A stretch of DNA of 64,000 bases from Eledone cirrhosa. Lineage: Eukaryota. This document shows, one piece after another, positions 1 through 47,114 of this stretch (positions are counted from its first letter, which is position 1; each line of letters begins with the position of its first letter). The stretch lies in the NCBI GenBank assembly GCA_964016885.1, contig CAXHJY010000876.1, positions 1-64,000 on the forward strand. Direction: 5' to 3'. The notes under the pieces were generated by a model. The model was not told where the DNA came from and made no database searches. It saw only the letters and a program-made list of their open reading frames with translations. A program made the translations under genes and the position numbers.

Positions 1-17
1 CATTATTTTGCTTTCCA

Positions 18-60
18 TGCCCTTGATAAACCCGCTCAGGGCGAAACGTACGTAGGCGCA
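18..60 (+). ncRNA. Minimal type-I hammerhead motif, U3-A8 variant
   Basis: tgccc TTGATAA a ccc gctca ggg c GAAAC gtac GTA ggcgca. Loop III is the palindrome GTAC; 10.1-11.1 is mismatched. Confidence 0.55.
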
Positions 61-119
61 CTATTATATAAACATGTTTTAACGGTTCTAAACTCTTTGT
101 ATTCATTTCCCTTATATAC

Positions 120-567: not shown

Positions 568-978
568 AGATCAAAAAGATGGTTAAATGAGTTCCATGGA
601 TTTTATTATGCGCATTTCAAAAACAAATATCATCATGCAATAACATTTGTGTTTTCAATCAGATAAAATAGAAGGACATGATATGAAGGTTAAAAACAAT
701 TGTGGATAGTGCAGTTTTAAATTCAACATATGATTTAAAACTGCACTATCCACAAGTGTTTTTAACCTTCATATCATGTCCTCCTATTTTATCTGATGAA
801 AACACAAATGTTATTGCATGATGATATTTGTTTTTGAAATGCGCATAATAAAATACATGGAACTCATTTAACCATCTTTTGATCTTATATATTATGTATA
901 CTCCAGTCCTACAAACTGTAGAGTGCTTCTTATCCGATATCTGCATTGCTTCATTGTACTACAATAAAACTCACCTCC

Positions 979-3690: not shown

Positions 3691-3799
3691 ATAATAATAA
3701 TGGTTTTTGATTTAGGTACAAGACCAACAATTTGGGGATTAAATCGACCCCAGTGGTTTCTGATAAACGATTTTCAGTTCAACAAATAGGCAATTCCGT

Positions 3800-6652: not shown

Positions 6653-6707
<55 letters not shown>

Positions 6708-6913
6708 AAATGTGTGTAATCCTTGGTACAGTTAGGTATATTAAGACAGGGGGGAAGAAAAAATGGCTTCACTTGTGCTTTCAACAAATTTATTTTCTTC
6801 ACAAAATCCAAAAAGAATTTTTCTTAAAAAAAATTATTTTATAAATTAAGTTGTTGGTTGTTGGTTAGGTCTTAGGAGTTCTTGGTTAACGTAGGAGGTA
6901 TTGTTTCGTTTTT

Positions 6914-6950
6914 AGAAAGACCTTTCACGCTGAGGTGCGCTTGTCAAACT
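6914..6950 (-). ncRNA. Degenerate hammerhead motif, U3-A8 variant
   Basis: Minus strand: agt TTGACAA gcgc acctca gcgt GAAAG gt CTT tct. Helix I is weak. Confidence 0.4.
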
Positions 6951-7122
6951 GATGTGTATGTGGTGTGTTGTTCTATATATAGGGATTTAACATGTCTGTG
7001 GTGTGGTAGGGGTTTCTTTTCTCCCCCTTTAATAAGTGCATGGGTGTAGGTGTGTTGAAAAAGTGTTCATAGCAGTAATGAGTTGAGACGGTGAGTAGGG
7101 TTGGGTGGGGAGAAACTTAGCA

Positions 7123-7162
<40 letters not shown>

Positions 7163-7264: not shown

Positions 7265-7735
<471 letters not shown>

Positions 7736-18141: not shown

Positions 18142-18177
18142 TCTTAACGTTTCGGACATTAGTCCTTCATCAGAAGA
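18142..18177 (-). ncRNA. Minimal hammerhead motif
   Basis: Minus strand: tctt CTGATGA a ggac taat gtcc GAAAC GTT aaga. Confidence 0.8.
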
Positions 18178-18384: not shown

Positions 18385-18422
18385 TTCTTCTGATGAAGGA
18401 CTAGCGTCCGAAACGTTAAGAA
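18385..18422 (+). ncRNA. Minimal hammerhead motif
   Basis: ttctt CTGATGA a ggac tagc gtcc GAAAC GTT aagaa. Stem II is identical to the other arm while the loop differs; helix III is the palindrome AACGTT. Confidence 0.8.
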
Positions 18423-19236: not shown

Positions 19237-19777
19237 TGTGTGTGTGTGTTTGCAAGCAGGTGGAATGCCAGTTTTGAAAAAAAAATCAGTTCAGTCAACT
19301 AATTCATAATAATTTATATCTGGAAGTGTTTCCTTCACAAAACTAATCAGATAATTCGTTTAAAATAGATAACTTATAAATCACAGTACGTTTGTCTTAT
19401 ATATGTGTCAATCCTAGTGTGAGAGAGGCATTGAAAGGTAGAGGGAGAGTGAAAGGGAGTGTGATGTAGAGAGAAGGCAGAGAGAGAGGCGGAGAGAGAA
19501 TATGAGAGAGGGAGAATAGGGAAGAGGTAGAGAGAGAGAGAGAGAAAGGAAAAAAAATGTATGTGTATAGGTGTCTGCGAGTGCGTATCTAGGGAGTTTA
19601 TACATGCATACATACATACATATATATACATTTATATATATGTGTGTATATATATATATATATTAGAAAGTGAGGTTTTTTTTACAAAACGAAAAATAAC
19701 CGAGGTGTCCTACACGAGTGAAAGTATAAAGAAAAAGTGTGATGTGAGAAAAACCACAGACCCTCCATCTCAACTCA

Positions 19778-19815
19778 CCTTTTGAAAAGCAGAAGAACTG
19801 CGAAACCGGTAAAGG
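19778..19815 (+). ncRNA. Minimal hammerhead motif, U3-A8 variant
   Basis: cctt TTGAAAA gcag aagaa ctgc GAAAC cg GTA aagg. Helices I and II are perfect and helix III is the palindrome ACCGGT. Confidence 0.7.
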
Positions 19816-19884
19816 AACCAAATAAATATATATATTTAAAAAAAAAATAAGACTCCAGTTGCATTTTCGATTTCATCTCTTTTT

Positions 19885-19968
<84 letters not shown>

Positions 19969-24935: not shown

Positions 24936-25677
24936 GGTCGGACGCCATGCTTTGACGCATAGAGTTACGGCCCTTGTCATTCTGAGTTCAAATCCCGCCG
25001 AGGTTAACTTTGCCTTTCATCCTTACGGGGTCGAAAAAATAAAGTACCAGTAATGCACTGGGTAATTGCTGGCCTTGTGCCAATAGTAGAAACAATTATA
25101 TTTGTGGATTGGCAGTATCGGTAGAGGGTCGGACGCCATGCTTTGACGCATAGACTCACGACCCTTGCCATTCTGAGTTCAAATCCCGCCGAGGTTAACT
25201 TTGCCTTTCATCCTTACGGGGTCGATAAAATAAAGTACCAGTAATGCACTGGGTAATTGCTGGCCTTGTGCCAATAGTAGAAACAATTATATTTGTGGAT
25301 TGGCAGTATCGGTAGAGGGTCGGACGCCATGCTTTGACGCATAGACTCACGACCCTTGCCATTCTGAGTTCAAATCCCGCCGAGGTTAACTTTGCCTTTC
25401 ATCCTTACGGGGTCGATAAAATAAAGTACCAGTAATGCACTGGGTAATTGCTGGCCTTGTGCCAATAGTAGAAACAATTATATTTGTGGATTGGCAGTAT
25501 CGGTAGAGGGTCGGACGCCATGCTTTGACGCATAGACTCACGACCCTTGCCATTCTGAGTTCAAATCCCGCCGAGGTTAACTTTGCCTTTCATCCTTACG
25601 GGGTCGATAAAATAAAGTACCAGTAATGTACTGAGTAATTGCTGGTCTTGTGCCAAAAAGTAGAAACAATTATATTT
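24936..25677 (+). mobile_element. Head-to-tail tandem array of four SINE units, 191-bp period
   Basis: gagttcaaatcccg recurs at 24984, 25175, 25366 and 25557. Dispersed single copies occur at ~13050-13190, 33125-33315, 56645-56835 (-) and 20800-20890 (-). Confidence 0.9.
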
Positions 25678-46333: not shown

Positions 46334-46371
46334 GCCAACAATGTTTCGTCCTATTAAGGACTCATCAGGGC
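46334..46371 (-). ncRNA. Minimal hammerhead ribozyme motif, intact
   Basis: Minus strand: gcc CTGATGA gtcc ttaata ggac GAAAC att GTT ggc, followed by AATAAA. Lies in a TA-flanked insert (46184-46385). Confidence 0.88.
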
Positions 46372-46873: not shown

Positions 46874-46927
46874 CTATTATATATATTTCAAGGGTACCAA
46901 AAACTTTGGTACGCTCTCATCAGATAA
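46874..46927 (-). ncRNA. Hammerhead motif, intact core
   Basis: Inverted copy of 47062-47114 with a different loop II. Confidence 0.78.
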
Positions 46928-47061: not shown

Positions 47062-47114
47062 TTATCTGATGAGAGCGTACCAAATTGTTGGTACCCTTGA
47101 AATATATATAATAG
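47062..47114 (+). ncRNA. Hammerhead motif, intact core
   Basis: ttat CTGATGA gagc gtaccaa attg ttggtac cctt GAAAT atat ATA atag. Confidence 0.8.

Follow-up and report, generated by a model that had tools for sequence, protein, structure and literature searches.

The window analysed here (the whole stretch of 64,000 nt, positions 1 to 64,000 of the forward strand of Eledone cirrhosa contig CAXHJY010000876.1, assembly GCA_964016885.1) is AT-rich and dense in microsatellites, and carries three hammerhead motifs in which the tertiary pair between core positions 3 and 8 is U3-A8 (Table 1). All three have the N3-U-G-A-N-N8-A core and the GAAA..UH segment, their 3-8 pair being of the Watson-Crick type, and their letters are exactly those given in a preliminary description of this DNA. 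Motif 3 is complete, the window copy of motif 1 has a broken first helix II pair, and motif 2 has no helix I. The window also contains six canonical C3-G8 hammerhead motifs, with two inverted pairs among them; the types at 793 and 47066 are linked to Hydra ORFs at other loci. A 191-bp tandem array at 24936-25677 (3.9 copies, 98% matches) is built of a SINE-like unit also scattered throughout the loci.

Table 1. Hammerhead motifs and neighbouring features in the window
Feature	Positions	Strand	Basis or remark
Hydra-family element, 3' end, interrupted by contig start	1..112	+	similarity search
Motif 1, U3-A8 hammerhead in 3' pLTR of Hydra-clade Penelope-like family f1	18..60	+	letters, family copies
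C3-G8 hammerhead motif	793-847	+	letters
Copy of young Neptune-type family f2, 5'-truncated and flanked by (TA)n runs	6703..7124	-	family copies
Motif 2, U3-A8 core boxes of a hammerhead with helix II and a short helix III; helix I absent	6914..6950	-	letters, family copies
TATA-like box and initiator-like TCAGTT	6950..6981	-	31 nt apart; A of TCAGTT 3 nt before motif 2 U3
C3-G8 hammerhead motif	18146-18173	-	letters
C3-G8 hammerhead motif	18390-18417	+	letters
Inverted pLTR 3' tail, second (truncated) arm of f3 insertion	19664..19737	-	antisense at 3' end of longer copies
f3 pLTR, sense arm (Neptune-type)	19741..19889	+	family copies; ORF linkage
Motif 3, minimal hammerhead of type I with U3-A8 core	19778..19815	+	helix II of 4 bp; helix III self-complementary (ACCGGU), of the dimer type
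Motif 3 helix I, CCUU/AAGG	19778-81 and 19812-15	+	letters
Motif 3 core UUGAAAA	19782-88	+	U3 = 19782, A8 = 19787
Motif 3 GAAA	19802-05	+	letters
Motif 3 predicted cut	between 19811 and 19812	+	after GUA
AATAAA in f3 sense arm	19821-26	+	letters
(TA)n microsatellite at f3 insertion end	19888..19954		usual target context of f3
C3-G8 hammerhead motif	46337-46368	-	letters
C3-G8 hammerhead motif	46878-46923	-	letters
C3-G8 hammerhead motif	47066-47110	+	letters

Motif 3 is the only one of the three that is recovered by a strict descriptor fixed beforehand. Its helix II is GCAG/CUGC, closed by a G-C pair, and is accompanied by CCGG and UA; helix I has 4 bp in the window copy and 3 bp in about half of the f3 copies, in which the fourth pair is broken. 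The sense arm of the f3 terminal repeat (pLTR) starts at the transcription start predicted from the TATA box, includes motif 3 and an A tract and ends before the tail, and its link to an ORF is seen at loci L095, L093, L238, L239 and L241. Motif 2 has the core UUGACAA (U3 at 6947, A8 at 6942, minus strand), a helix II of GCGC/GCGU with a G-U closing pair and a helix III of AG-GU-CU. Helix I has 0 bp in the register common to f2 and the related family f2b and at most one pair in other registers, and both families (433 and 423 copies) lack it. The TATA-like and initiator-like elements upstream are presumably a promoter; the predicted start in f2 and f2b (loci L343-L367) would then lie 3 nt before U3, so that the transcript would begin near the core and leave no room for helix I. 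A restoration of helix I by splicing, with the CAG directly before the core used as in Drosophila virilis Penelope, was considered and rejected, since the first pair would still be mismatched in f2 and f2b and the site reads as a TATA box plus initiator. Motif 2 is thus a doubtful ribozyme for want of helix I, and likely a non-cutting remnant. Motif 1 has the core UUGAUAA (U3 at 23, A8 at 28), the self-complementary CGUACG and a 2-bp helix I with a bulge. The break in its helix II is due to an A at position 30; eight exact family copies have G (4), A (3) or T (1) there, and the G-C pair is the commonest family state.

The preliminary description called the three host elements unrelated, which proved wrong, as all three motifs lie in terminal repeats of Penelope-like elements. 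In full copies an ORF with RT and GIY-YIG domains precedes the terminal repeat on the same strand at a steady distance. The Pfam models PF00078 and PF01541 match the f2 and f3 ORFs, which share a CX4CxxC linker and CCHH cysteines, encode proteins that are 48% identical and are called Neptune-type here by these linker and endonuclease marks, the trees having been built without reference Neptune or Nematis RTs; the motif-2 ORF also has DKG. The motif-1 element was traced by similarity search with 1..112 (47 matches; 303 candidates, of which 40 were scored), and its ORF, with RWK, DKT, a CxCX5C linker and an endonuclease without CCHH, bears the marks of the Hydra clade as defined by Craig et al. 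2021 (PMC8557442). No Pfam model matched this ORF, and its placement is by these motifs; an initial assignment to Nematis was dropped for Hydra on the clade definitions. The linker and endonuclease marks and the (TA)n targets are as described for the Hydra and Neptune clades in the same paper, which calls Hydra hammerheads canonical. A further clade of this genome is represented by a 756-aa open Penelope-like frame at L299:2278-4545 (+), which has a DKS motif and is followed after 208 nt by a C3-G8 hammerhead. Several other ORFs (e.g. L311, L240 and L210) had no hammerhead detected behind them and were left unscored.

In each of the three families U3 and A8 occur together, which refutes the notion of a C3-G8 consensus. 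Exact 32-letter patterns searched genome-wide yielded 11,288 copies of the motif 3 family, of which 11,180 are U3-A8, 46 have another base at position 8 (all with U3), 62 have another base at position 3 (all with A8) and none is C3-G8. The 108 copies with a single change, at a rate of about 0.5% per site, reflect the usual decay that follows insertion. Motif 2 has 433 exact copies, and of the first 100 of these 98 are U3-A8, one is U3-G8 and one U3-U8; for motif 1 all eight exact copies and all 36 distinct copies examined are U3-A8. U3-A8 is hence the state of the families and not a product of decay. Beyond these three, U3-A8 is the state of seven further families (a second Hydra family, f2b, f4, f5, f6, the L124 type and a retrozyme-like repeat), and about 17 families are C3-G8, some of whose clusters may overlap; this census covers about 2 Mb of sequence, much of it targeted. 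The retrozyme-like repeat (L223:5598-5913 and L269-L298) is a non-coding unit of about 316 bp in two-armed tandem arrays, whose U3-A8 hammerhead has 4-bp helices. Another tandem array, at L303:991-2231 (+), comprises five 310-bp copies with a C3-G8 hammerhead and a CGCG loop.

The abundance of the variant was estimated from an even sample of 80 spaced 10-kb stretches (800 kb of the 3.0-Gb genome) with a descriptor that allowed all 16 states at positions 3 and 8 and asked for a helix I of at least 2 bp. The 26 matches comprise 11 C3-G8, eight U3-A8 and seven spread over five other states, whereas the 18 matches in the reversed sequence comprise one C3-G8, one U3-A8 and ten A3-C8. The description of such compensatory variants as rare in nature is therefore contradicted in this genome, U3-A8 being nearly as common as C3-G8 in the sample; its warning that scans for CUGANGA alone would miss them is borne out, as eight of these 19 motifs would be lost. 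A looser descriptor, tuned post hoc to pass all three motifs, finds exactly those three in the window, and U3-A8 matches to it were absent from 150 local shuffles of the window. A search of the window against Rfam gave no hammerhead among the 150 of 614 matches listed, which are mostly microsatellite matches to miRNA models.

Pairing is maintained where the letters change. Across six related U3-A8 motifs helix II covaries around an unchanged core (second pair C-G to A-U, third pair A-U to U-A), and between f2 and f2b a G-U pair becomes U-A. Motif 3 needs two copies to form its helix III, because a 2-nt loop cannot close in a monomer; computed duplex energies are -8.3 kcal/mol for ACCGGU, -9.8 for ACGUACGU and -0.8 for AGGUCU of motif 2. 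The computed minimum-energy dimer of motif 3 has a longer intermolecular helix, in which helix I is lost. As to insertion, copies occupy (TA)n runs, their pLTR arms arranged head-to-head or in tandem and a tail present at just one end; a near-perfect inverted repeat with arms of about 85 bp at 7445-7622 of the window is probably another head-to-head insertion. Of 30 f3 arms picked solely by what follows the cut site, 16 have their first letter within 3773-3786 of the reference, where the start is predicted at 3775, about 30 nt behind the TATA box, 12 begin further upstream, two begin inside the motif and none begins at the cut site. The five letters before the cut are kept in 11,851 of 13,461 copies. 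Motif-3 copies were thus inserted with the cut site intact.

We propose that a promoter in the pLTR just upstream would yield an RNA that carries the motif close to its 5' end, and that two such RNAs would pair through ACCGGU and so complete helix III. Cleavage would be slow and would need the dimer or the element's protein, and most of the RNA would be reverse-transcribed uncut into (TA)n sites, giving two-armed insertions. Our preferred reading, which we regard as quite probable, is that the motifs are minimal type I hammerheads of Penelope-like pLTRs in which U3-A8 is fixed family by family and likely kept for slow self-cleavage, assisted by a dimer or a protein, of some of the element's transcripts; the three motifs, at the ends of Penelope-type elements, are accordingly predicted to cut themselves slowly. 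They are real and family-level, and probably under constraint. The preliminary description also took the double changes to suggest selection, and this stands in part. None of about 27 families has a mismatched 3-8 pair as its majority state, which fits selection on the pair in master elements. Within f3, the 33-nt motif has no common variants where roughly 1.4 would be expected by chance, a result near chance that has no power on selection and comes from letters of contigs of four sequencing runs whose kind is unrecorded; selection is therefore suggested by the comparison between families only.

How far catalysis itself matters is less clear for the Neptune lineage. The sister family f4 (11,346 copies; protein 57% identical to that of f3) combines U3-A8 with GCAA for GAAA (C13) in 98 of the 100 copies listed, and together with the missing helix I of f2 and f2b and the fourth helix I pair of f3 this suggests that the catalytic constraint, and with it the need for catalysis in the Neptune U3-A8 lineage, may be weak. 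Loci of f4 include L211:3811 (+) and L212:2286 (-), with none in the window. In another sister family, f5 (L219:3216 (+), L220 and L223:2850 (-)), U3-A8 is combined with a first helix II pair that is U-A or with extra bases flanking helix II on both sides, and helix I has 2 bp. It is conceivable, if on balance unlikely, that the Neptune U3-A8 motif is a retired ribozyme, with U3-A8 as one step of its relaxed AT-ward drift, whose boxes and palindrome persist as a signal for binding, dimerisation or a promoter-proximal role. The spread of f4 with its altered GAAA box, the state of f2 and f2b, a helix I of only 2-4 bp in f3, f5 and f6 and the insertion of uncut copies would all suit such a history, as does the finding that hammerhead mutants still insert in vitro (PMC11167929). 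However, drift should have fixed C3-A8 or U3-G8 in some families, and this is seen in 0 of about 27; moreover, the Hydra U3-A8 families and the retrozyme-like repeat retain the full core and 4-bp helices. A still less probable alternative is centred on f4: A8 would permit a second-site core, so that UUGAAAA...GCAA would still cleave, or else the Neptune U3-A8 lineage would retain the boxes for a non-catalytic job at the transcript's 5' end. The C13 family is a more unusual lead than U3-A8 itself.

The preliminary description further counted three independent double changes. Protein trees (FastTree and smaller trees) indicate that f3, f4, f5 and f6 share U3-A8 and CCGG by descent. C3-G8 families are found in the Neptune-type group (f7, f8 and two other families) as well as in Hydra (four linked families), and since both clades hold them the Hydra and Neptune switches are separate, so that at least two independent double switches are secure, although the trees cannot separate gain from reversion of U3-A8. 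A third is favoured and would rest on a single unstarred branch, that which joins f2 to f7, a C3-G8 family (support 90/95 and 91/92). A single clade of all U3-A8 Neptune-type families is rejected under LG+G4 (p-AU 0.023, 9 rows) and not rejected under a mixture model (p-AU 0.065, 7 rows), the tested group having been defined by the trait after the FastTree result was known. The Hydra tree joins its two U3-A8 families without a support value, and one and two Hydra switches are indistinguishable on it. These placements make it improbable that U3-A8 had a single origin and reached the other families through descent or terminal-repeat exchange, in which case its recurrence would say little on selection. 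Such a history would be in keeping with the shared descent of f3 to f6, with the survival of one Neptune clade under the mixture model and with the fact that a terminal repeat need not follow protein trees. Against it, the Hydra and Neptune-type proteins are distant, both groups contain C3-G8 families and their motifs have no stem or loop sequence in common; Schistosoma mansoni (U3-A8) and S. japonicum (C3-G8) differ likewise while having similar stems (PMC4209133, Fig. S3). Decay from C3-G8 hammerheads, or chance matching, is next to impossible as the origin of the motifs: C to T and G to A changes are common mutations, and motifs 1 and 2 have the helix defects described, but the family counts of all three motifs, with no C3-G8 among the f3 copies, the empty shuffles and the eight real matches against one reversed refute it.

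The U3-A8 swap is not new in Penelope elements, and the present case is an ordinary new example of it. U3-A8 as a natural variant that is active in vitro was first reported by Perreault et al. 2011 (PMC3088659, section 8); the compensatory pair is the same, but their cases are scattered, whereas here it is fixed in high-copy retroelement families. Cervera and de la Peña 2014 (PMC4209133) describe about 1,300 U3-A8 matches in Cercyon Penelope elements of S. mansoni, and their supplement has U3-A8 in two of 56 representatives, one with the core UUGAAAA. The E. cirrhosa motifs resemble these Cercyon/Penelope hammerheads in being of type I with a short palindromic helix III and a short helix I, in their location in pLTRs, in opposite-strand pairs 100-700 bp apart, in the truncation of most copies and in U3-A8 covariation. 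Unlike in Cercyon as described in that paper, U3-A8 makes up a large share of the motifs here and occurs in Hydra, in Neptune-type families and in a retrozyme-like repeat, most motifs are without the extra base after A9, and sister families show A13C or loss of helix I. The hammerhead of the Anolis Poseidon element PAc is protein-assisted and depends on the 3-8 pair, and insertion in vitro does not require this hammerhead (PMC11167929). It shares with the present motifs the pLTR location, a tail at one end, AT-rich targets and uncut RNA as the insertion template; in contrast, PAc has C3-G8, its ORF starts inside the motif and its cleavage was measured, while that of the present motifs is predicted. 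We found no literature on U3-A8 hammerheads in cephalopods or Hydra elements, the supplement of Craig et al. having been covered as raw strings only.

About four in ten minimal hammerheads of this genome, amounting to tens of thousands of copies, would escape a standard CUGANGA scan. Whichever reading of f4 is correct, intact f3, C13 f4 and helix-I-less f2 form a graded natural series for probing the purpose of the hammerhead, and the eroded sister families provide ready contrasts for the question of what hammerheads do in Penelope elements. The 3-8 pair has switched repeatedly between C-G and U-A, and no family has fixed a mismatch, which lends comparative support to a constraint on the pair in these elements.
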